Sequence record: NC_041871.1
From: Escherichia phage Murica
Strand: one strand, 5' to 3'
Length of the DNA: 64,000 nt
Part shown: positions 29,987-44,824 of the stretch, piece by piece
How the letters are laid out: each line of letters begins with the position of its first letter
How positions within the stretch are numbered: position 1 is the stretch's first letter
Translations under genes and position numbers: made by a program
Notes under the pieces: model-generated
Told to the model about the DNA's origin: nothing
Seen by the model: only the letters and a program-made list of their open reading frames with translations
Database searches by the model: none

Positions 29987-30013
29987 AGGACGCTCTGTGG
30001 CGTCCTTTTCTTT
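29987..30013 (+). terminator. intrinsic terminator
   Basis: AGGACGC-tctgtg-GCGTCCT then TTTCTTT. Confidence 0.6.
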
Positions 30014-30175
30014 ATCTGGTGCACGATTGCATACCTTGGACAGATAATCTCGTTACAGAGCGTTTAAGAGCTTTCTACAAACAAGTCTCTCTTTCGAGCG
30101 TAGCGAGAACGCACGTCCGTTTTGACCAAAATCACCATACGCTCGGATTTTAACCAAACCCTCGCGGCGTTGCTG

Positions 30176-30204
30176 TTGACACATTACCGCTCCCGTGATA
30201 GTAT
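30176..30204 (+). promoter_or_regulatory. sigma70-like promoter with extended -10
   Basis: TTGACA (30176-30181), 17 nt, TGaTAGTAT (-10 at 30199-30204). Confidence 0.55.
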
Positions 30205-30236
30205 CCACACACAGTTTGGAGAATATGGAATACACA

Positions 30237-30326
30237 ATGAGAACATTGTCTGAAGTTTTAGTGGTGATCCTGATGATCATTACTTCCATAGCGGCTGTTG
30301 CCGGAATACTCACGGGTGGAACATGA
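30237..30326 (+). CDS. hydrophobic leader micropeptide (29 aa)
   Basis: MRTLSEVLVVILMIITSIAAVAGILTGGT; stop overlaps next start (ATGA). Confidence 0.3.
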   Translation: MRTLSEVLVVILMIITSIAAVAGILTGGT

Positions 30327-30535
30327 TCAACACACATGCACCTGAAGAGACATCCAAAGGAGTGACCATATGTCCCTTGGCTGAGCCAGTTAGAGAGGAA
30401 AACTTAGATTCTGAGGACTCTTCATCTTCGTCCCAGACAGATCCTGAGGCTGATGACCTGACGTGGGAGGACATCGTAGATATCTGGTTCTCTATTATGC
30501 CTGAGCACGAAGAGTTCAGAGGTGGTAGACTATGA
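30323..30535 (+). CDS. hypothetical highly acidic protein
   Basis: Ser/Asp/Glu-rich (DSEDSSSSSQTDPEADD); GGGTGG SD. Confidence 0.45.
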   Translation: MINTHAPEETSKGVTICPLAEPVREENLDSEDSSSSSQTDPEADDLTWEDIVDIWFSIMPEHEEFRGGRL

Positions 30536-30655
30536 AGCACCGAGCCCACACAGGTTCCTCATGCTAAAGCATGGCCTGAAGAGGCAAACGTGTATAATTC
30601 CTGTGCATTGTGACGTATAAAACCCGTTCACACTCTCATTTCCAGAGGAGATTTT

Positions 30656-30871
30656 ATGAAGATAGAAATATTTGGTGGAGCTGACAACACTCGTGGCCTG
30701 ATTTACCTGGAATTCGATGAATCATACCTGCCAGAGGTGTTAAATATAGACTCTGTTGCTGAGGCTTTGGGAGTAAACCCTAAAGAACTCCACTCTTGTG
30801 CTGAGATCGATGGTTGGGAAGAGACCATGAACATTGATTTCAGTGAAGTAGAGGATGAACCGCTGGACTGA
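30656..30871 (+). CDS. small acidic protein
   Basis: MKIEIFGG...; GAGGAG SD; last + strand gene before the noncoding region. Confidence 0.5.
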   Translation: MKIEIFGGADNTRGLIYLEFDESYLPEVLNIDSVAEALGVNPKELHSCAEIDGWEETMNIDFSEVEDEPLD

Positions 30872-30962
30872 CACACAATTAGCTGCCCGGCTAAAGTGCT
30901 GGAGCACCTACAATACATCTTTCAACTAAATTTCCCACCACCACAATCACTTACCTTCCACA

Positions 30963-31025
30963 CATGACTGTTTGCTTGTTTAGTGAGCAGTCATGCCTTG
31001 ACATTCTTGCCTATCCTGATAAAAT
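30963..31025 (+). promoter_or_regulatory. sigma70-like promoter with upstream inverted repeat, firing into ORF-free region
   Basis: CATGACTG (30963-30970) / CAGTCATG (30988-30995); TTGACA (30998-31003), 16 nt, TAAAAT (31020-31025). Confidence 0.45.
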
Positions 31026-32349
31026 TAAGTTCTTCTCTTTTCTTTTACCGAGTAATTCGGGTTTTCTGTTCTCTTCGGTTTGAAGGGGTATGGAGATACA
31101 CCTGAGTGAACATGGTGAACAACCGAACATTTGGCTATGGCATTAGCATGGCGAAGCGGACGGGTGACGAAAGAGGGGCCGGAGGACACCAGTCACTGCC
31201 ATATGATATATGGGTGATAACCTGAAGAGTCTGAATAAGTGTTTAAGTACCAGTCAGAGGAAAAGGTGAATGGTAGCCGAAGGGGGAGGGGGGTTTCTTG
31301 TATCTTTAATTTGTATATTATGTATACACTCGTAAACCAATCTCATCTGAATCTGTTTACCACACAAAGTAGATAGGGACAAATATCACCTATTAAACTT
31401 GAATTATTTATAGAAAATACCACAACACCACTTAAGTCTTTGATTTTACACACAAATCCTACAGATATTCAACCTCTATATTTAACATATTCATAACATA
31501 TTCCATACTCTACCTGTCTGATCAATTTACCCAACCACATCCTCCATATTTTCCCTGTCTGTACCACCCCTGCCCCGCCGGGAGTCCCGTCATATCTGGC
31601 TTTCCAGCAAATATCACACCCACAAATATCATTGCCTGAAGAGGGTTTCATCCCATAGTACATGCCTTACCTGAAGAGCGCTTCATACACCACGTAAATT
31701 TTTTAATTTACCCCCCCTCCCCGCCGCCGGAGTGGTCGGCTTTTCCCACACAGGCCTGAAGAGTCAGCCAGAAATATCTGAACAGGTCCAGTTATACCAC
31801 GATTTTGACCTGACCGACAGGAGTGCTGCCAGGCGGACGGAATGGGAATACTTCTCATTCTTATAATAATTCTCAAATATCGAGGCAGTGAGGCAAATTA
31901 ATAGGTGAGGCCGTTCACACAGTGGCACAACATTTGCAATCTATTTTGTGAGGGTGAATGAGAATACCTATCATTGTGAGAACTGTTATCATTACGGGCA
32001 ATTTAACATAATACCCATTATGCGCACCACTGGCGATCCATACAGGGATTGATAACATGAGTTACAGTTTACGCATATAACAATCATATTTCTTACTATT
32101 TGTGTGGGATATAGTTAGCAGCCGATAGATTAGATATTGACCTGTGGACTTCCAACCGTCTAGACGTCTAAACGCCCACACAACAAGGATTATACATACA
32201 TTACTGAATGTAAACAGGGCCGCAAAAATGCTACCATACCAGATTGTAAATTTTTCATGCAGCACTTGACAAAGAGGAGAAAAACTTGTCTGACACAATA
32301 TGACATACTGGGCACATTAAACACACTTTAGACTTAATTGACATGCCTG

Positions 32350-32469
32350 ACTGTTTACGCTGTCACTATTCACGCTATTACTATTCACTCCCTTTACTGT
32401 TCACGCTCTTACTGTTTACATGCTTAATGGTTTACATGACCAATAGTTTACATAGCTAACTATTTACAT
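32350..32469. repeat. iteron array: 8 direct 11-bp repeats at 15-16 bp period
   Basis: actgtttacgc, actattcacgc, actattcactc, actgttcacgc, actgtttacat, atggtttacat, atagtttacat, actatttacat starting at about 32350, 32365, 32380, 32396, 32411, 32427, 32443, 32459. Confidence 0.8.
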
Positions 32470-32481
32470 GGAAATGATAAG

Positions 32482-32762
32482 CCATGCCATTCGTTTGCAT
32501 GATAACTATTAGCAAGTTAATAATCTTTCGCTGGCTATGCCAGGTGACCTTTGGTCACCCCTTCGGGTGTTTCTATGACATAATATAAAAGCAGGGCAAC
32601 TATTAGAAGATCTATAGTTGCCTTGCTTGTTATGTCATGATTAACTAAATACAAGGCAACTATGATCTGATTAATAGTTTGCAAACAAACTATCACGGGG
32701 GGTGATGGTTACTGCTTTTATATTATGTCGCGACTCCGTCGCGCCATGCCATTCGTTTGCAT
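32482..32762. repeat. nested direct/inverted repeat complex
   Basis: 19-bp direct repeat CCATGCCATTCGTTTGCAT (32482 and 32744); 18-bp inverted repeat TGACATAATATAAAAGCAG (32576) / CTGCTTTTATATTATGTC (32712); palindromes GGTGACC-ttt-GGTCACC (32543-32559) and GGCAACTAT-N10-ATAGTTGCC (32595-32622). Confidence 0.75.
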
Positions 32763-33388
32763 AGTTGCCTTATTGTTACAGATAAAATAATTGTATTGTT
32801 AATTATTTCTTATCTTTCTCTTAGTCATCTAATGATTCCAGTCAGTATAGTAATGTACAGTAAACATTAGACGACTAAAGATTTATATGCTTATAATAAC
32901 TTACAGTGACAATTTCGGACTGTTTACGAAAAATGTTGACACCTGAGCCGATTTATGTTATGCAGTTTACACGAATAATTATTTTATGCAGGTATTGACT
33001 ATTCCGTTATTCTATGGTCGGAATAAATACTTAGCAGTCTATAGAATGGTGACGCTACGTGAATTCTGGAATTTAGTGGCTATAGTTATACCCGATTTTT
33101 CACGTAGAACACGCTTTTGTGGTTATGTAAGTGTATGACTTATAAAGATTTTTAGTTGTTGACAAGACACTGAAGATATGCATCAGGTTAAATTTTGTGC
33201 AATAGCTGCATTACGTGCAATTTTGGAAGGAAAAACGTGTAAAAATGGCCCTGCTACCACACAATGAAAGATTATGCAATAGCTATTTTATATGTATGTT
33301 TGTACAGTGTGTGGGATTGATGGCTAGTCAATTATTCCACTTGCCAGGTGGGGACGTTTGTGGTAGGAGAAATACAGACAAAAAGAAA

Positions 33389-33406
33389 GGGGCCTTTTAA
33401 AGCCCC
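33389..33406 (-). terminator. terminator closing the - strand arm
   Basis: GGGGC-cttttaaa-GCCCC with U-tract on - strand (complement of AAAAGAAA 33381-33388). Confidence 0.5.
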
Positions 33407-33425
33407 TGATAGTTTAGTTAAGAAA

Positions 33426-33845
33426 TTATAATGATTCGTATATTTCATAGATTCGATTTGCCAGGTCGTTACGGTAGCGGAATTTTTCCTCACGTTTGAT
33501 CATCAGATCTTTAAAGCCATATTCTTTAAGCACTTCATTAACTTTATGGCGGCATACCTTCATATTATCCTGTGCGTCACCAATAAACTTGTTGCTATGG
33601 TGCATGGCTTTAATTTCTTCTTCCAGGACCAGGGCAACTATGCGGACCGGATCAAGCTGATAGGCGGTAACATCAATGCGGCATTGTAAACGGCTTTTTA
33701 CGTCTGCCACCGGATATACTGCAACCTCTTCCCCGTCAACATTGACAATAATTAGTTTACCATCGATTTCGAATCCTTTCGCCGCCGGACCGTGACAAAA
33801 AGCGTTATCAAAGCTATATGCCGGATTATTAGATTTAATGTTCAT
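33426..33845 (-). CDS. hypothetical protein
   Basis: ATG with AAGAGGT SD; 139 codons. Confidence 0.5.
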   Translation of the reverse strand: MNIKSNNPAYSFDNAFCHGPAAKGFEIDGKLIIVNVDGEEVAVYPVADVKSRLQCRIDVTAYQLDPVRIVALVLEEEIKAMHHSNKFIGDAQDNMKVCRHKVNEVLKEYGFKDLMIKREEKFRYRNDLANRIYEIYESL

Positions 33846-33894
33846 GGTGTTTTTACCTCTTAGTTAATTTTCTTACAACTTCCCTTCAAAAAAG

Positions 33895-33923
33895 AATATA
33901 GCAAAACTGCCGATCCTTGTCAA
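33895..33923 (-). promoter_or_regulatory. sigma70-like promoter (- strand)
   Basis: On - strand TTGACA (33918-33923), 17 nt, TATATT (33895-33900); -35 sits in palindrome CCTTG-gttga-CAAGG. Confidence 0.45.
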
Positions 33924-33990
33924 CCAAGGATAGCATAATTTTTATGTGATCAAGGGGCTTTATTGCCCCCTGATCGTGCAACTTGTTGTA

Positions 33991-34254
33991 TTATTTGTTA
34001 CTCATCCAGTTTTCCCAGGCTGCCTGATAATCTGCCTCACTGCGGCGGATCTCTTCTTGCTCTTCAAGTCGGATCTCTTCTTCCAGGTACCCCAAGATAT
34101 CGGCTTTCTTGGTCTGGCGTAACATCCAATCATCTTTTTTACGGGTAAAGATCTTATATGCTTTCTCGCAAACCTCTTTTTTGCTACCTTTTTGGACTTC
34201 AAGAACTTTGTAGGCCATGTACTGAACTAGTTTAAGCTGATCAAGACGTTTCAT
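33991..34254 (-). CDS. hypothetical charged protein
   Basis: SD AAAGAGGT; 87 codons. Confidence 0.5.
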   Translation of the reverse strand: MKRLDQLKLVQYMAYKVLEVQKGSKKEVCEKAYKIFTRKKDDWMLRQTKKADILGYLEEEIRLEEQEEIRRSEADYQAAWENWMSNK

Positions 34255-37850: not shown

Positions 37851-38159
37851 TTAGTTTGAGAAAACATCGTTCACAATAGCGATCACAATGCCGCTCACCT
37901 TGTCACGGTCAACAATGCACAAATCACCATAGATCATGTGGTAGTCTGGATGATCTTTCACAGAATAGTCAATAAGTGTTTTCTTGTCATCCAGCTTCGT
38001 AACTTCCATTCTCATAACGATATGAGAATCATCAAAGGCATTATTCCGAAAAGTCATAGCCTGACCGCCAGGGCACCCAGTGATCTCCACTTCCACACCA
38101 TCTACGATCTGACCATCAAAGAAATAAAGATTATTAGCCTGGATAAACATGTCTATCAC
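37851..38159 (-). CDS. hypothetical protein
   Basis: AAGGAGTGA SD; downstream of 44-bp repeat copy A. Confidence 0.5.
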   Translation of the reverse strand: MIDMFIQANNLYFFDGQIVDGVEVEITGCPGGQAMTFRNNAFDDSHIVMRMEVTKLDDKKTLIDYSVKDHPDYHMIYGDLCIVDRDKVSGIVIAIVNDVFSN

Positions 38160-38196
38160 TCCTTGTTAACTGCGTGGTATTTTAACAGGGTTTAAA

Positions 38197-38240
38197 TTTA
38201 CTTTATTGATGGCCCTGGAGTCAAGGCCATCTAAAAATAA
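38197..38240 (-). promoter_or_regulatory. 44-bp repeated intergenic cassette, copy A
   Basis: TTTACTTTATTGATGGCCCTGGAGTCAAGGCCATCTAAAAATAA; on - strand carries TTGACT inside palindrome GATGGCC-N10-GGCCATC, then TAAATT 18 nt downstream. Confidence 0.55.
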
Positions 38241-38243
38241 ATT

Positions 38244-38444
38244 TTACAGGCCTACAATCTCTTTGATTCGTTTAACCGCTGCCTCAGCGCCTTGGGGGTA
38301 AAAATTATGGTAACCAATCACGCGAGTGATACTAATCGCCGTTTGATGATCTTCATAGTCGCCCTTGAAGATTTCTTGACCGTCAATCAGCACGGCAATT
38401 TTTTCTTCTTTTTTGAAGTTAATAACGCGGATATTGTTGCTCAT
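38244..38444 (-). CDS. hypothetical protein
   Basis: 66 codons; SD AAAGGAGAAA. Confidence 0.5.
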   Translation of the reverse strand: MSNNIRVINFKKEEKIAVLIDGQEIFKGDYEDHQTAISITRVIGYHNFYPQGAEAAVKRIKEIVGL

Positions 38445-38545
38445 TTTGTTTCTCCTTTCTGGTTTTTGTGGTGGTGGGGATTAGCTCCCCCCGTTGATTG
38501 TTATTATCCACATTCCGGACCGGATTGCAACACCCCGGAAGAAAA

Positions 38546-38559
38546 TTTTTTTTTTTTTT
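38546..38559. repeat. T14 homopolymer tract
   Basis: 14 consecutive T on + strand beside hairpin GGCCCCC-atgatc-GGGGGCC (38567-38586). Confidence 0.8.
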
Positions 38560-38590
38560 AAAGATAGGCCCCCATGATCGGGGGCCGTTA

Positions 38591-38710
38591 TCAGTTACTT
38601 ACAGCGATAAAATACATCCCTACGCCTAACAATATTTCAAGGGCGATGATCTCAAGCCATACCATAGCACGGCGCGCCTTATCGGTGCGGGGCTTATCCT
38701 TGGTTGTCAT
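38591..38710 (-). CDS. hydrophobic micropeptide (39 aa)
   Basis: MTTKDKPRTDKARRAMVWLEIIALEILLGVGMYFIAVSN; SD AGGAGGGAAGGGGGAG. Confidence 0.4.
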   Translation of the reverse strand: MTTKDKPRTDKARRAMVWLEIIALEILLGVGMYFIAVSN

Positions 38711-38730
38711 CGTCTCCCCCTTCCCTCCTG

Positions 38731-38952
38731 TTAGCAGTTACGTGGTTTGCAATGGCCCCCAGGAGTATTATCACCACGCACATTGCAAGAAAAATTATCT
38801 CTGTCGTTGTTCGATCCATTGTTATAAAATTCCTCAAGATCAGGCCTGAAAATAAAGCGTTCGTTATTGAATCCGTCACGCCAGGCGGCTGGCTTCAAAT
38901 CTTCACTAAAGGGATTAATTAACGTGGCATTATTTAAACGGTTGGCCCACAT
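38731..38952 (-). CDS. hypothetical protein
   Basis: ATG after GAGAGGAA; track start further upstream. Confidence 0.4.
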   Translation of the reverse strand: MWANRLNNATLINPFSEDLKPAAWRDGFNNERFIFRPDLEEFYNNGSNNDRDNFSCNVRGDNTPGGHCKPRNC

Positions 38953-39301
38953 ATTTTCTATTCCTCTCAAATAGGCGATCCGCCTCAGTTAAACATATCT
39001 CATGGGCTTGATCTCTGGTTTTAGCCTCATCAAAAACCTGTTGTGCCAGGCTGCAGCGTAGGGAGACTGGAAGATCACTATAATAGGCGTTGACAAACGT
39101 TTGAGCGTCGTACAGGTCTGAAAATACTTTACCCTTTCTATTATTCCCCTTGTCAACAATTGCAAGGATAACCAATACAATAGTTGCGACTACCCCCAGG
39201 AAAATAGATATAATAAACCATAAAAAGGCGGATCTTCCCATCTTGCCAGCGATCCAGGCGTTAAACAAGGCAACCAATACAGCCAAAATAATAAATTCCA
39301 T
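38930..39301 (-). CDS. small membrane protein (two hydrophobic helices)
   Basis: MEFIILAVLVALFNAWIAG and FLWFIISIFLGVVATIVLVILAI; AAGAGG SD. Confidence 0.5.
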   Translation of the reverse strand: MEFIILAVLVALFNAWIAGKMGRSAFLWFIISIFLGVVATIVLVILAIVDKGNNRKGKVFSDLYDAQTFVNAYYSDLPVSLRCSLAQQVFDEAKTRDQAHEICLTEADRLFERNRKYVGQPFK

Positions 39302-39337
39302 TCTATGTACCTCTTTTACAGTTCTGATTAACAATAA

Positions 39338-39355
39338 GGCGGCAAATATGCCGCC
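39338..39355 (-). terminator. intrinsic terminator (- strand)
   Basis: GGCGGC-aaatat-GCCGCC; on - strand followed by UUAUUGUUAAUC. Confidence 0.45.
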
Positions 39356-39365
39356 TGTTACCTGA

Positions 39366-39746
39366 TTAAAAATTATCGCCGTAAATCTTTCCGCTTTCTA
39401 CCCATACCACCACGCGAGGCATACTATCCCACACGTCTTGTTTTAGATTGAGCGCGTGCAATTCTTCGGTGGTGCTCATACCGGGCACGGGCTGATTGTA
39501 TACTGCAAAACGACCGCCTGCATAATCATAGGCCAGGGTTAAATCACACTGGATCATCTTTTTGATCATGGCATTAAGCATGGCGTTAGCCGCATATTGA
39601 TCACGTTTTAAAGGCAACTCTTTGATTAGTTTGCGATAGTTTTCGATATGGTCGCACACTGTTTCACGTGGAAGATCTTTCATATCCTCGCGAAAGGTAA
39701 CCAGGTTAAACATAACGGTGTCAATGGCTTTAGTGGTGCTTTTCAT
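39366..39746 (-). CDS. hypothetical protein
   Basis: 126 codons. Confidence 0.5.
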   Translation of the reverse strand: MKSTTKAIDTVMFNLVTFREDMKDLPRETVCDHIENYRKLIKELPLKRDQYAANAMLNAMIKKMIQCDLTLAYDYAGGRFAVYNQPVPGMSTTEELHALNLKQDVWDSMPRVVVWVESGKIYGDNF

Positions 39747-39834
39747 GATGTTTTCCTCTTTGTTTTGTGTGGGGCAAACGTCTTGCCCCTTGAGTTTTAA
39801 TATAGCAGGTTTTTAGGTTATTGCAACACTTTAT

Positions 39835-40458
39835 TTATGAAAAAGTCATCTCGCCATATTCATCCACATCAAACCGCCAATCATTGGCCTCGATAAGGCC
39901 GATCAGGTTTTCGGTAGTAAATTGTTCAAGATAAGCTTGCTCCAGGTCTACGTAAACCTTGCGGGATAGCTCCCGTACCGTCTCGGTGATCAGCTCTTCC
40001 AGCTCTTCAACTTTGTCCTCTTGCTTGGTGGTCAGGTCTAGCCAATTAGTATCGATGCACCCTCCTATTGTGTTTTCGTGGTGATAATGGCTAAACGGGA
40101 TACGTTCAACACTGGCTGATAGTTCGCCATCGTGCATTGTGCCGAACAAGTGACGAATTGATCGGAACTTGGTCAGGGCCTTTACTTTACGCAAGAATTT
40201 TTCTAAATCCACGTTTTCCGCACTGATTGACGCGCCGTCACCCTGGCACCAAAAGCCTGACCAATGTACTTCGGTATCTTCAAGGCCATACTCTGGAAAA
40301 ACATATTCTTTATAGTATTCAATTACACTTTCTGCAAAAAAGTTATCCCCGCTGTGTTCTTCTCTTTCGCGTACCATTTCAATGGCTTTTTCTTTTTGTT
40401 CGTCGGTCAGCACGTCGAAAGATAAATTGTAACCTGTGGTAATGTTAACGGTGGTCAT
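39835..40458 (-). CDS. hypothetical acidic protein
   Basis: 207 codons; GGAGAAAA SD. Confidence 0.5.
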   Translation of the reverse strand: MTTVNITTGYNLSFDVLTDEQKEKAIEMVREREEHSGDNFFAESVIEYYKEYVFPEYGLEDTEVHWSGFWCQGDGASISAENVDLEKFLRKVKALTKFRSIRHLFGTMHDGELSASVERIPFSHYHHENTIGGCIDTNWLDLTTKQEDKVEELEELITETVRELSRKVYVDLEQAYLEQFTTENLIGLIEANDWRFDVDEYGEMTFS

Positions 40459-40533
40459 GATATTTTCTCCTGTTTTCTTTGTTAGTGGCGGGAAGTTTTC
40501 CCGCCTATGTTTTTTAATTATACTTATTGAGAT

Positions 40534-40794
40534 TTACTTGTCAACACTATTTTTTAAATTATTGTGGCGCAAAATGTTTAAAATCTTCTCAACGTCATCA
40601 ACACGGCGGCAATTTTTAAACGCTACCAATTGCCCCATGATTTTAATCACTGGGCGGCCTTGCCAGTGCCCCTGAAGAAAGCGCGCCTTGACTTTATCGG
40701 TGGAACTATCACGCCACCAAATAGCCTTGTTGTTGCAGTAGTAAAAATTATTCAGGATAACATCAACTTTATCAAAATTTTTTAATTTACGCAT
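40534..40794 (-). CDS. hypothetical protein
   Basis: 86 codons. Confidence 0.45.
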   Translation of the reverse strand: MRKLKNFDKVDVILNNFYYCNNKAIWWRDSSTDKVKARFLQGHWQGRPVIKIMGQLVAFKNCRRVDDVEKILNILRHNNLKNSVDK

Positions 40795-41012
40795 GGCGTT
40801 TACTCCTTTCTCTCTTTGATGTGGTTAGTATAGCTAACCTGTTGACGATGTCGATGATATTTTTAACGCCACAAAACGGCCCTGGGCGATGTTTTCAGGT
40901 TAAAGGGGGCGATTGCATAGGTGGGGGCCTTTTTGGCACTTATAGGGCCAACCAGGGGCGCTATTCGTAGGATAGAAATAAAAAGCCCCGCACAATGGCG
41001 GGGCGTTGGTTG

Positions 41013-41210
41013 TTATTTGTCTTTATGGCGGTATCGTTCTGCCTGTCGTTCACGTTCCAAAAGCAGGCCCGGTAATTTGCGATCATAGTGATTCCTCCAG
41101 ATCTTCCCGAACCTTTTCGGCTTATTCAGTTTATTGTTACGCTGGCGGCGTTCCGGCAGCTCTTCGGAATCGTGGGGGCGCTTTACAATTTTTTCGAAAT
41201 TAATTTTCAT
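41013..41210 (-). CDS. hypothetical strongly basic protein
   Basis: Arg/Lys-rich 65 aa. Confidence 0.45.
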   Translation of the reverse strand: MKINFEKIVKRPHDSEELPERRQRNNKLNKPKRFGKIWRNHYDRKLPGLLLERERQAERYRHKDK

Positions 41211-41554
41211 AAATTTCCCCCTTTACTGATTTCAATATTTGCCTGAATCGCCCGGATACGCCGTTTTATAACCTCCTGATCCTTGCAATCATATCCCCAA
41301 AAGTCTACGATCTTTGCGCCTCCGGCCTTTAGGCGGTATAGTGTTTCTTGCATCTTGTAAGCTGGGATCGGTCGCGGTGTTACCTGGTCGCCTCTCTCAT
41401 CTTTGTACTTGATTATGTAGTCTTCGTTGTCGTTGAATACCCAAAATGGGTATTCTGTGAGCGCGTTGCTATCTTTTTCGTTTTTAGATTGGATCTTGTT
41501 TACAATTAAAGCCGTAGCAATAGCGCCAATAATAAAACTAGCCCCGCTGATCAT
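41207..41554 (-). CDS. membrane-anchored protein
   Basis: N-terminal MISGASFIIGAIATALIV hydrophobic helix. Confidence 0.5.
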   Translation of the reverse strand: MISGASFIIGAIATALIVNKIQSKNEKDSNALTEYPFWVFNDNEDYIIKYKDERGDQVTPRPIPAYKMQETLYRLKAGGAKIVDFWGYDCKDQEVIKRRIRAIQANIEISKGGNL

Positions 41555-41628
41555 GTACTTTCTCCTTTCATGGTGTTAATAAATTATCTTTATAGATGGC
41601 CCTGCAGCCAGGACCACCGAAAAAATAA

Positions 41629-41874
41629 CTATTTCACAATGCCTACAAAACAGATCCCGCCTTCACCTATATAAGCAATATCGGTCACTTTGTAGTTGGT
41701 CAAGATCTGTTTATTCAGATCATTAATAAAATCGGTCATTGCGTTGGTGTAGTTGTCTTCCGTATCTAAGGCATAATCCCAGGTGTAAACCTTTTTACGT
41801 CCGAAGCCTTTTACCATGATACGGGCGCTTTTGGTGTTGGTAGGGGCATAATATTTGGTGATTAGTGCTGCCAT
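41629..41874 (-). CDS. hypothetical protein
   Basis: 81 codons; downstream of 44-bp repeat copy B. Confidence 0.5.
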   Translation of the reverse strand: MAALITKYYAPTNTKSARIMVKGFGRKKVYTWDYALDTEDNYTNAMTDFINDLNKQILTNYKVTDIAYIGEGGICFVGIVK

Positions 41875-41917
41875 GGTTTTAACTCCTATGCATTAGTTCA
41901 GTGTTAACAGTATAAAG

Positions 41918-41961
41918 TTTACTTTATTGATGGCCCTGGAGTCAAGGCCATCTAAAAATAA
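41918..41961 (-). promoter_or_regulatory. 44-bp repeated intergenic cassette, copy B
   Basis: Identical 44-bp core to copies A and C. Confidence 0.55.
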
Positions 41962-41963
41962 TC

Positions 41964-42305
41964 TTACTCGTTTTCTTCCAGCTCCGCAAGCTCTTCTTTT
42001 GCTTCTTCCAACTCTGTCTGCAATTCCTGGTATTCTTCATCGTCCTCAATATCCAGGCTGTCGATGTAGTCGCTAAATCCGCAGCGGTAAGCGATAGGAT
42101 CTAGCTCCTTGAGGATACGCGACGGAAGAAAAGAAATGTTTCCGATCATAATTTCGCCGTAGATCTCGTCCAACCATTCATCATAGTTTTCGTCGTACTT
42201 GTCCTCGTCGATTTCAAAGTTATCGATCTTGTCCTCAAGGTCTGCGATCTGTTTTTTCAGTGCGGCAACCTGAATAGCTTTTTCTGCGGCGGTCATAGTA
42301 GTCAT
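41964..42305 (-). CDS. hypothetical highly acidic coiled-coil protein
   Basis: Very Asp/Glu-rich (EDKIDNFEIDEDKYDENYDEWLDE ... ELEEAKEELAELEENE). Confidence 0.5.
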   Translation of the reverse strand: MTTMTAAEKAIQVAALKKQIADLEDKIDNFEIDEDKYDENYDEWLDEIYGEIMIGNISFLPSRILKELDPIAYRCGFSDYIDSLDIEDDEEYQELQTELEEAKEELAELEENE

Positions 42306-42384
42306 GGTGTTTTTCTCCTTTTGTGTGTTCTGGGAAGTTTTCCCGTTTATGTGTTTAGTATACTGATCTAAGTTAGCTTGTCAA

Positions 42385-42504
42385 TTAAAAGTTTAAGAAA
42401 AATTTTGCGACACTGTTGGCGCTACCCATCAACATTTGCGCCAGGATGTAACCAATGATGCAAACGATAATAGTTACCTTTGTGTGCTGGCGTGTAGTAC
42501 TCAT
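42385..42504 (-). CDS. hydrophobic micropeptide (39 aa)
   Basis: MSTTRQHTKVTIIVCIIGYILAQMLMGSANSVAKFFLNF; AAGGGGG SD. Confidence 0.35.
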   Translation of the reverse strand: MSTTRQHTKVTIIVCIIGYILAQMLMGSANSVAKFFLNF

Positions 42505-42538
42505 CTTCAAGCCCCCTTTTTAGCTTAACTGGGATTAG

Positions 42539-42582
42539 TTTACTTTATTGATGGCCCTGGAGTCAAGGCCATCTAAAAATAA
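42539..42582 (-). promoter_or_regulatory. 44-bp repeated intergenic cassette, copy C
   Basis: Identical 44-bp core. Confidence 0.55.
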
Positions 42583-42584
42583 AC

Positions 42585-42980
42585 TTAGTAAGTTTTCAGT
42601 ACTTTCCCGTCCAGTCTGTCAAGCTGGATCTCGATAGCTGCAGAAAACCTATTATAAACCACATCGCCCATGGAGTCCAGCCAATCTATGACGTTATACA
42701 CCTGCTCTTTATTCTTGCAAGTCCGGATCCGTTTCATTACGTAAGACGGATCAATATTAGTGCTCTCGTTGTTGTGGTCATGCGCCTGGCCTGCTGCATT
42801 AGTTATAGATTTTACAACCACCTGAAAGGGCTTTAAGGTGCCTTTTGCGTTCATCTCACGCGCTTTTGCGGCGCGGTTGTTATATGTTACACAACGGCGG
42901 CAAATGTTGACCAAATGCATATCAATAATTTTTTCATCGTTTGCCAGTTCGTTCATGATGCGGCGTACGTTCTTATTCAT
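42585..42980 (-). CDS. hypothetical protein
   Basis: 131 codons. Confidence 0.5.
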   Translation of the reverse strand: MNKNVRRIMNELANDEKIIDMHLVNICRRCVTYNNRAAKAREMNAKGTLKPFQVVVKSITNAAGQAHDHNNESTNIDPSYVMKRIRTCKNKEQVYNVIDWLDSMGDVVYNRFSAAIEIQLDRLDGKVLKTY

Positions 42981-44230: not shown

Positions 44231-44824
44231 ATGAGAACTCCTCGCATTTAATAAATTTAATTAGCACGCTAATTACACTCCGTAACAATTTACTATAAAA
44301 TAGTATCCACTAAAATATTCCCATATAGAAATTTTAAAAATCCATTTCTGAAAACGAAAAATCGATTTCGTCCCTAAAAATTTCAGGCCTAGATCCGGAA
44401 CGATTTCCAGAAAATCCGATTCAGAAAACGAAAAACAGATCGAGTACTGAGAAATTTATCGAGAAAAATTTTCAGAAAATCCAAGCCCTGAAATGAAAAG
44501 TAGATCGAGTACCTGGAAAGCTGCACCGCAACTTCAAGATAGTGGTTAGATTGTTACCATAGAAGGTCAAGGGTAAGTGGAGGAAGTTCTAGTAGAGGGA
44601 GGTTAGCATGTGTGGGAAATCTATAATGGTGGCCTGGAATATGGTGCAAACGATAGGATGAGTTATTCAGCTTGTCGCGCCTACTCTGAAAAATCCATTT
44701 TAGTTTTCGATCCATTTTCTGATTTTCTAAGAATTTTAAAATATCCGGCCCGGTGAAATATCAAAAGGAGGAAATCCATTTTAGAAATCCTCCTTATACT
44801 TGATATGCCAGGAATTTTCAAGTA

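Follow-up and report, generated by a model that had tools for sequence, protein, structure and literature searches.

The window analysed here is a stretch of 64,000 nucleotides of Escherichia phage Murica (NC_041871.1). A scan of the window detected the 44-mer TTTACTTTATTGATGGCCCTGGAGTCAAGGCCATCTAAAAATAA at exactly three positions in a region of early genes (copies A, B and C, hereafter the canonical copies; Table 1), where chance alone would give none; no match occurred in 100 shuffled sequences. The first-pass annotation of this DNA had reported three identical copies, and their identity was thus confirmed. No further match appeared at three or fewer mismatches. The first-pass annotation had missed a diverged fourth copy (copy D, 71% identical, at 41582-41632). 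The minus strand carries every gene around the cassettes. The canonical copies start 2-3 nt past the TAA stop codon of the upstream gene (38246-38244 for A, 41966-41964 for B and 42587-42585 for C); the distance of 3 nt given earlier was exact for the first copy only. At four different genes, a constant 0-3 nt separate the cassette from the stop codon, the stop codon precedes the A/T-rich stretch TTATTTTT, and the ribosome-binding site and ATG of the next gene lie 28-44 nt downstream of the cassette.

Table 1. Positions of the cassette copies, their parts and the neighbouring features in the window.
Feature	Position	Strand	Description
Copy A, full hairpin	38190..38247	-	Cassette 38197-38240; between 66-aa and ~100-aa genes; covariance model 80.2 bits; -25.2 kcal/mol, z -4.5
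Copy B, full hairpin	41911..41968	-	Cassette 41918-41961; between 113-aa and 81-aa genes; covariance model 80.9 bits; -23.5 kcal/mol, z -5.6
Copy B, upper stem	41952-41943 / 41938-41929	-	
Copy B, loop	41942-41939	-	ACUC
Copy B, lower stem	about 41961-41954 / 41925-41918	-	
Copy C, full hairpin	42532..42589	-	Cassette 42539-42582; between 131-aa and 39-aa genes; covariance model 81.9 bits; -25.6 kcal/mol, z -5.9
Copy D	41577..41634	-	Starts at TAG stop of 81-aa gene; covariance model 69.7 bits; sense -25.5 kcal/mol, z -4.2
131-aa ORFan	42585..42980	-	Upstream of copy C; promoter 43056-43029; phrog_13245, function not known
81-aa ORFan	41629..41874	-	Copy B upstream, copy D downstream; phrog_3199, function not known
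115-aa ORFan	41207..41554	-	Downstream of copy D; canonical operon terminator 41004-40985
66-aa ORFan	38244..38444	-	Upstream of copy A; promoter 38530-38503; operon terminator 37445-37424
621-bp repeat unit	41962..42582	-	One cassette, 39-aa gene, sigma-70 promoter with 5' stem-loop, 113-aa gene
39-aa gene	42504-42385	-	Inside 621-bp unit
Sigma-70 promoter	42384-42357	-	Inside 621-bp unit; carries 5' stem-loop
113-aa gene	42305-41964	-	Inside 621-bp unit

Each operon that holds copies starts from a near-consensus promoter and closes with a canonical terminator, a hairpin plus U-tract; these operons run from 43056 or 42384 to 41004 and from 38530 to 37445. As judged from these signals, the cassettes would lie inside polycistronic transcripts, between cistrons, with no U-tract terminator before the operon end. 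The eight neighbouring genes all fall into PHROGs of no known function, and the gene content of the region differs between close relatives.

On the minus strand, TTGACT lies between GATGGCC and GGCCATC and is followed 18 nt on by TAAACT or TAAATT, an arrangement present as originally described. The arms of the 7-bp palindrome noted there are real, but the pairing is far longer. The sense RNA of every copy shares one fold: an A-U lower stem of 10-11 bp is separated by a 2x3 internal loop from a G-C upper stem of 10 bp, which includes a U.G pair and is capped by a tetraloop. The A/T-rich flanks of the cassette pair together to form the lower stem, which overlaps the upstream stop codon, and the G-C stem begins 11-12 nt past the stop. 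The hairpin overlaps both the -35 and the -10 candidates. No U-tract follows it on either strand (tails AAUAAAGUAAA on the sense strand and UAAAAAUAA on the other). No Rfam family matched the cassette, and the hairpin was described in none of the annotations or papers that we found.

The same two-stem fold was obtained for all 46 distinct copies, which came from 22 genomes. The mean fold energy of these copies was -23.9 kcal/mol for the sense strand versus -14.7 kcal/mol for the antisense strand, with the sense strand better in 45 of the 46, and hairpin energies ranged from -21 to -32 kcal/mol across copies. When 39 distinct copies were aligned, 96.7% of the paired cells were compatible with pairing, versus 35-55% when the partners were slid. 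The covariation score was 0.163 versus 0.100 in shuffled alignments (none of 500 reached the observed value) and at most 0.055 when slid; the shuffle control overstates the significance of this score, because the sequences are closely related and much of the signal comes from the single split between copy D and the canonical copies. Four lower-stem pairs were altered on both sides in a compensatory manner (GC/AU/GU, UA/UG/CG, UA/AU/GU/GC and AU/UA). The upper stem was paired in 99.7% of cases and every change but one went via G.U; its pairing therefore holds on the sense RNA only. Further, variable columns were more frequent among unpaired than among paired positions (7/9 versus 15/42; Fisher p = 0.03).

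Copy D has CTGGCT or CTGGTA where the canonical copies have TTGACT. Its arms, GGTGGTCC and GGGCCATC, no longer form a DNA palindrome, and RNA pairing is found on the minus strand only, through G.U pairs. The copy D hairpin was nevertheless retained in all 19 genomes examined by means of G.U pairs and compensatory changes, with energies of -22 to -32 kcal/mol for the sense strand versus -7 to -15 kcal/mol for the antisense strand; the antisense fold in the window reached -11.3 kcal/mol (z -0.1). The -10-like hexamer of copy D drifts (GATAAT, GATAGT, GACAGT), and the opposite arm changes to compensate. In the canonical copies, the spacing between the -35 and -10 candidates is 19 nt in copy A of phage WM and 20 nt in copy C of an IMG/VR vequintavirus, and the hairpin is kept in both. 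Because copy D keeps the hairpin without TTGACT and indels shift the spacing to 19-20 nt, the RNA structure, rather than a promoter-operator, appears to be the selected feature.

The cassette family was confined to Vequintavirus, the rV5-like coliphages to which Murica belongs, with four members per genome. Copies C and B have a start-to-start spacing of 621, and the 621-bp module is carried by 111 of about 119 records. Five vequintaviruses (ime, magaca, ECP26, phiWec189 and IMG/VR 2051223002) lack precisely this module, and all five deletions have an exact hybrid junction in which the upstream flank of C is joined to the downstream flank of B. Among these C/B junctions, the flanking gene shows at least two allele backgrounds. 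The copies are thus recombination points at which a small gene module is lost; because three of them are identical over at least 44 bp, they act as portable homology. V18 and Mangalyan carry hybrid D cassettes, flank identities switch across cassettes, and crossovers within or beside the copies bring different alleles of the adjacent ORFans together. The loop variants TCC, ACC and TTC each occur at all three canonical sites, and copies at the same site in different genomes were no more alike than copies at different sites (1.03 versus 1.10 differences).

The cassette resembles elements already known from T4-type phages, the promoter-early stem-loops (PeSLs) of RB49/phi1, T4/PST and KVP40/nt-1 (Arbiol et al., 2010, PMC2839356; Comeau et al., 2014, PMC4122927). 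Like a PeSL, it is a short cassette that recurs between genes of an early region rich in ORFans, and its layout runs from a stop codon within A/T-rich sequence through -35 box, stem-loop (overlapping the -35 box in one PeSL subclass), -10 box and Shine-Dalgarno sequence to the ATG; both show copy-bounded indels with chimeric junctions as well as degraded copies. Unlike the PeSLs, the present cassette occurs in a different phage lineage, the Vequintavirinae, with four copies per genome only. Its promoter part is a weak candidate and is absent from copy D, its hairpin is long and consists of an A-U and a G-C part instead of a short GGGG...CCCC stem, and covariation at the RNA level marks the hairpin as the selected part.

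In geometry the hairpin is also similar to sites R0.3, R0.5, R1, R1.1 and R1.3 of the T7 early region, at which RNase III reportedly cuts between genes (Dunn and Studier, 1983). When the T7 early intergenic regions were folded, the upper stem measured 9-13 bp, G.U pairs included, the loop had 3-5 nt, and an internal loop parted the upper stem from a lower stem beginning at the upstream stop; energies were -15 to -26 kcal/mol. Each of the two phages thus has its own family of hairpins that recur between early genes read by host polymerase and start at the upstream stop. In both, two stems are parted by an internal loop over about two helical turns, the upper stem has about 10 bp including G.U, the loop is small, folding energies are similar and no U-tract follows. 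In contrast to the T7 sites, in which the internal loop is about 4x5, the internal loop here is 2x3 and the lower stem is nearly pure A-U. The cassette and the folded T7 sites had no common motif, and no sequence similarity to T7 or T3 sites was found. A third group of comparable elements is the REP elements of E. coli, which act as intercistronic stabiliser hairpins in operons. They too are repeated palindromic elements past stop codons within operons, without a U-tract, and can protect upstream mRNA and promote recombination, but the cassette is phage-specific, has four copies and is unrelated to the host REPs. Identity with a host REP or BIME was ruled out, as no cassette match was found in 5,426 complete E. 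coli genomes.

The first-pass annotation had regarded the cassette as a reused sigma-70 promoter with a built-in operator. Transcription would then start 6-9 nt past TAAACT/TAAATT, giving the downstream ORFan a transcript of its own, perhaps regulated by a dimer that binds the inverted repeat. An A/T-rich, UP-like stretch precedes TTGACT-18-TAAACT/TAAATT, one subclass of T4-type PeSL has its stem-loop over the -35 box, and nearly all canonical copies keep TTGAC unchanged (the exception is TTGAT in a divergent IMG/VR copy C), with a sixth position that takes all four bases, as a -35 box would lead one to expect; a promoter role would account for this constancy as well, which counts against the RNA-element reading. 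Further, copy A of HMD-6 has a 1-nt loop deletion together with a 1-nt insertion, so that the spacing stays 18. However, with its non-optimal spacer the sequence scores 9/12 in a consensus scan, and 49 such matches in the same 14-kb region versus 31.8 expected by chance place this score at chance level. The cassette is missing from the 33 promoters listed by the rV5 authors, and the variable spacing and the lack of both box and DNA palindrome in copy D speak against promoter and operator alike. The half-sites lie 17 bp apart, centre to centre, which would place the halves of a dimer on different helix faces, and a regulon under one dimeric regulator is a weak idea with four sites per genome. 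We therefore did not retain the promoter-operator claim and regard an internal promoter as an unlikely account of the element, although the three canonical copies may have weak promoter activity.

A transcription attenuator in the PeSL sense, in which the stem-loop partly stops or pauses RNA polymerase and distal genes are expressed less, seems less likely again. The position directly past the stop codon and the stable G-C upper stem would suit it, and the drop in reporter expression caused by the stem-loop of one RB49/phi1 PeSL was similar in size to that caused by rrnB T1. The missing U-tract argues against it, as do the annotations of EdH4, Alma and rV5 and a terminator scan, all of which call the nearby U-tract terminators but not the cassette; further, the downstream genes have no other promoter and would be silenced by efficient termination. 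An intrinsic (rho-independent) terminator was rejected, since the tail of the G-C hairpin has no U-tract and the scan calls the neighbouring true terminators only. The clear recombination products and the shuffling of variants among sites could instead point to an element at the DNA level only, a linker present in several copies, or a selfish repeat, maintained by its recombination, perhaps via a cruciform or single-strand hairpin, with no RNA role; the PeSL authors speculated on a recombination protein that recognises the stem-loop. We consider this improbable. A double-stranded linker requires no pairing, yet copy D, too diverged to recombine with the others, has kept its hairpin, and the restriction of G.U pairs to the transcribed sense strand is a prediction of selection on RNA. 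Control of translation termination or coupling, with the hairpin hindering the terminating ribosome or acting as an RNA operator bound by a phage protein, has the slightest chance of these readings. It would accord with the constant stop-to-cassette gap and the overlap of the lower stem with the stop codon, and E. coli REP sequences near stop codons reportedly interfere with the terminating ribosome (Liang and Deutscher, Mol Cell, 2015). This placement is not diagnostic, because the RNase III hairpins of T7, like the PeSLs, also start at the stop codon. We identified no candidate RNA-binding protein, and no neighbouring gene has a known function.

We therefore favour, with a probability of about 45%, a PeSL-like intercistronic hairpin with the geometry of a T7 RNase III site, which would serve mRNA processing or stability and double as a recombination linker. 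Host RNA polymerase would transcribe the early operon from a strong sigma-70 promoter, and the sequence past the upstream stop would fold into a hairpin of about 21 bp that acts post-transcriptionally, as a processing or stability signal in the style of the T7 early genes. RNase III may cleave the internal loop, or the hairpin may merely block 3' exonucleases; in either case, a stem-loop would protect the end of the upstream cistron, and the fates of the two cistrons could differ. The three canonical copies may also gain a weak internal promoter from their -35/-10-like hexamers, as PeSL cassettes do, but these hexamers are not what is conserved. At the DNA level, recombination between C and B removes the 621-bp two-gene module. 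An RNA-processing site had been raised in the first-pass annotation as a secondary idea; as a prediction, it agrees with the evidence that a sense-strand structure is conserved in polycistronic early transcripts. As each genome has only four sites, any gain for the phage may be small.

More speculatively, and in our view doubtful, the cassette could be an independently arisen RNA-processing signal of Vequintavirus, with T7-like sites for RNase III (or a phage nuclease) that shape early mRNA stability and that also serve as a linker for excising two-gene modules, possibly as mini-circles, and for exchange between phages. If so, a post-transcriptional signal would be tied directly to modular genome evolution.

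The rV5-like phages are widely used in E. coli biocontrol and therapy and are part of the BASEL collection, and their early regions are annotated merely as strings of hypothetical genes. The cassette copies account for a recurrent difference in gene content between isolates and extend the PeSL idea, that regulatory cassettes are recombination linkers, beyond T4-type phages. For a phage that depends on the host RNA polymerase, the hairpin is a small candidate signal of mRNA processing that can be tested readily. The region also has classic PeSL-style units, in which a consensus promoter is followed by a Gn-loop-Cn stem; the early region shows an organisation by two kinds of repeated regulatory cassette.

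The first-pass annotation had described a 44-bp cassette repeated between early genes, and we recovered it exactly at three sites (copies A, B and C; 0 occurrences in 100 shuffles). No further match with up to three mismatches was found in the window. Around the copies, every gene lies on the minus strand. The stop codon of the preceding gene is 2-3 nt ahead of each copy, a gap first given as 3 nt throughout, and the next start codon follows 34-44 nt after the copy ends. Searches for repeats and for degenerate palindromes revealed a diverged fourth copy (copy D, 71% identical), which abuts the TAG stop codon of an 81-aa gene. A covariance model built from the cassette copies identified four cassettes in the window and, run with default filters, four in the complete rV5 genome, all within approximately 4.4 kb. 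Diverged members beyond A, B, C and D were detected neither in the window with the filters off nor in the whole rV5 genome with default filters.

Coordinates of the cassettes and of neighboring features in the window
Feature	Position	Strand	Remark
Copy A	38197-38240	-	
Copy B	41918-41961	-	
Copy C	42539-42582	-	
Copy D	41577-41634	-	41582-41632 in the repeat and palindrome searches
Module between C and B	41962-42582		621 bp
Promoter + stem-loop unit	43056-43000	-	
Promoter + stem-loop unit	42384-42331	-	
Promoter + stem-loop unit	40544-40487	-	
Promoter + stem-loop unit	39826-39771	-	
Promoter + stem-loop unit	38530-38470	-	promoter 38530-38503
Promoter + stem-loop unit	36707-36650	-	
Promoter + stem-loop unit	34670-34615	-	
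Operon-end terminator	41004-40985		
Operon-end terminator	37445-37424		
Terminator hairpin beside 13-T run	38586-38567		
13-T run	38548-38586		stretch that includes the run and the hairpin above; 13 A on the - strand
Allelic leader + gene after copy A	37851-38190	-	
81-aa ORFan	41629-41874	-	between copies B and D
47-nt direct repeats	44337-44522		spacing 74 and 65 nt
GC-skew and GC-content change	~30000-34000		

When the minus strand was folded as RNA, every copy formed a lower stem, a 2x3 internal loop, an upper stem and a tetraloop. The lower stem (10-11 pairs, mostly A-U) is built from the A/T-rich cassette ends and a few site-specific flanking bases, among them the final bases of the upstream stop codon. 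The upper stem is G-C-rich and 10 bp long (GAUGGCCUUG/CAGGGCCAUC), with one U.G pair. The hairpin energies of the window copies ranged from -23.5 to -25.6 kcal/mol (z = -4.2 to -5.9). The plus strand folded much more poorly, and that of copy D did not fold (z = -0.1). The comparison was extended to 72 copies from 22 genomes, comprising 46 distinct sequences. All 46 adopted the same fold, and in 45 the sense strand folded better than the antisense strand (mean energies, -23.9 vs -14.7 kcal/mol). In coding-strand RNA, the cassette is a hairpin. In copy B of phiWec193 (locus L031), a G-to-U change breaks the U.G pair; this was the sole stem-breaking variant seen and the sole copy without a better sense fold. 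Copy D of Alma (locus L002) has one additional base in each upper-stem arm and still folds (-21.8 kcal/mol).

When 39 distinct copies were aligned without gaps, 96.7% of the pair cells were paired, compared with 35-55% after the partners had been shifted by 1-3 columns. Covariation scored 0.163 vs 0.100 in shuffles, and 0 of 500 shuffles reached this value. This score is limited by the relatedness of the sequences: many covarying cells stem from one split, that between D and the canonical copies A, B and C, although several independent changes are present among D orthologues. Four pairs of the lower stem were altered on both sides, and intermediates were seen across phages (U-A, U.G, C-G and A-U, G.U, G-C). 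The upper stem was 99.7% paired, and its changes went via G.U with one exception. Variable columns made up 7/9 of the unpaired but 15/42 of the paired positions.

The cassette had been read as a reused promoter whose -35 box lies within a palindromic operator for a dimeric regulator. The hexamers are present but weak: TTGACT-18-TAAACT/TAAATT matches the consensus at 9/12 positions, a level reached 49 times in 14 kb vs 31.8 expected. In copy D, the -35 position is occupied by CTGGCT, CTGGTT or CTGGTA in 19/19 genomes, the -10-like hexamer drifts while the opposite arm changes in compensation, and the arms form no DNA palindrome. Further, natural indel variants space the two hexamers by 19 and 20 nt but retain the hairpin. 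These four points speak against selection for a promoter-operator. The hexamers may nevertheless confer weak promoter activity, because almost every canonical copy has an unchanged TTGAC (a divergent IMG/VR copy C has TTGAT instead) and the 18-nt spacing survives one pair of indels.

Other candidates were rejected. An N4-type hairpin or single-strand promoter does not fit the stem and loop sizes and would need a virion RNA polymerase, which rV5-like phages are not known to possess. Total dependence on the host polymerase is stated in the Certrevirus paper. An intrinsic terminator was rejected as well: the 3' tail of the cassette is AAUAAAGUAAA, with no U-tract, and both a terminator scan and other annotators (EdH4, Alma and rV5) were silent. 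The cassette-bearing operons have near-consensus promoters upstream of the cassettes (43056, 42384 and 38530) and end in hairpin-plus-U-tract terminators; the phage evidently employs canonical terminators where transcription should stop. A host-derived REP-like repeat was also rejected, because a search of 5,426 complete genomes of E. coli gave 0 matches. Between a further canonical terminator hairpin and the promoter at 38530 lies a 13-T run, which may be an UP element or a slippage-prone tract.

The hairpin is similar in its geometry and position to the repeated RNase III sites found between early genes in T7, an analogy without sequence homology to those sites. This comparison used only our own folds of the T7 early intergenic regions (the T7 RefSeq record carries no RNase III features). 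The closest described system is the promoter-early stem-loop (PeSL) of T4-type phages, a repeated cassette that combines the stop codon of the preceding gene, set in A/T-rich sequence, with an early sigma-70 promoter and with the Shine-Dalgarno sequence and start of the following gene; its stem-loop takes one of five positions, of which one is over the -35 box (PMC2839356, PMC4122927). PeSLs lie in hyperplastic regions rich in ORFans, and both indels and mini-circles arise through them (PMC2839356, PMC4122927). The cassette shares their layout, location and recombination, but it does not clearly possess a strong promoter and its stem-loop is of another kind. We conclude that the cassette is a real, conserved and previously unannotated element. 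It is best regarded as an intercistronic, PeSL-like cassette of Vequintavirus that forms an RNA hairpin and probably affects the processing or stability of mRNA.

In the same region, seven of 12 strong promoters are followed, approximately 10 nt past the -10 box, by a Gn-loop-Cn stem-loop. These units, whose sigma-70 promoters match up to 12/12 consensus positions, share the classic RB49/phi1 PeSL layout. Their transcripts carry the stem-loop at the 5' end (GGCGGGAAAACUUCCCGCC is one example, at -14.6 kcal/mol), followed by ACACAAA...AGGAG...ATG. Such RB49-style units are apparently undescribed for rV5-like phages; the rV5 annotation lists several RB49-like ORFs in this region.

The region is 93-99% identical to approximately 120 coliphage genomes of the rV5-like genus Vequintavirus (best, LL12, 98.7%). 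A BLAST search with 71 nt around copy B matched 119 records, all Vequintavirus and mostly at three places apiece. A pattern scan of IMG/VR returned 19 loci, with true members on two vequintavirus contigs only. The sole other covariance-model match (L012, 27 bits), outside the vequintaviruses, folded no better than shuffles (z = 0.02). An Rfam search down to E = 5 returned no family, only sub-threshold noise. The cassette is not among the 33 promoters and 20 terminators of the rV5 genome paper, nor is it annotated in the rV5, EdH4 or Alma records, and we found no published transcript data for vequintaviruses in the literature. Seventeen GenBank "Campylobacter phage" records (MG0656xx, UNVERIFIED, host C. 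jejuni) were 95-100% identical to E. coli vequintaviruses here and are probably mislabelled or contaminant genomes.

A single hybrid cassette, with the upstream flank of C and the downstream flank of B, was found in ime, magaca, ECP26, phiWec189 and one IMG/VR contig, and all five lack the module between C and B (a 39-aa gene, a promoter and a 113-aa gene). The module is present in 111 of approximately 119 records. Its loss is seen with at least two alleles of the flanking gene and looks derived, because the most divergent vequintavirus retains the module, with a diverged copy C. Hybrid D copies were found in V18 and Mangalyan, and flank identities change partners across the D and A sites. Further, each of the loop variants TCC, ACC and TTC is present at all three sites, and copies from the same site in different genomes resemble each other no more than copies from different sites do. 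Strict concerted evolution, in which paralogues are more alike than orthologues, was not found (1.05, 1.03 and 1.10 differences); the copies are simply interchangeable among sites. At the level of sequence, the cassette demonstrably behaves as a recombination linker.

Downstream of copy A, at least two leader and gene alleles occur among related phages (loci L003-L010), splitting approximately 20 nt past the cassette (TTTAAACCCTGTTAAAATA, then CCACGCAGTTAACAAGGAG or ATCAGTGCAAAAAGGAG). The 81-aa ORFan has homologues with 30-46% identity in unrelated phages, namely slur01-like E. coli siphoviruses, Pseudomonas KIL-like myoviruses and Klebsiella podoviruses, and is a small gene travelling horizontally. 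Elsewhere, the GC skew changes sign at approximately 30 kb and the GC content falls to 0.37 at 32-34 kb, presumably where the rightward transcription units meet the leftward ones, and the "non-coding" gap reported for rV5 between genes 163 and 164. Three imperfect 47-nt direct repeats (AAAATCCATTTCTGAAAACGAAAAATCGATTTCG...) occupy a stretch with no long ORFs.
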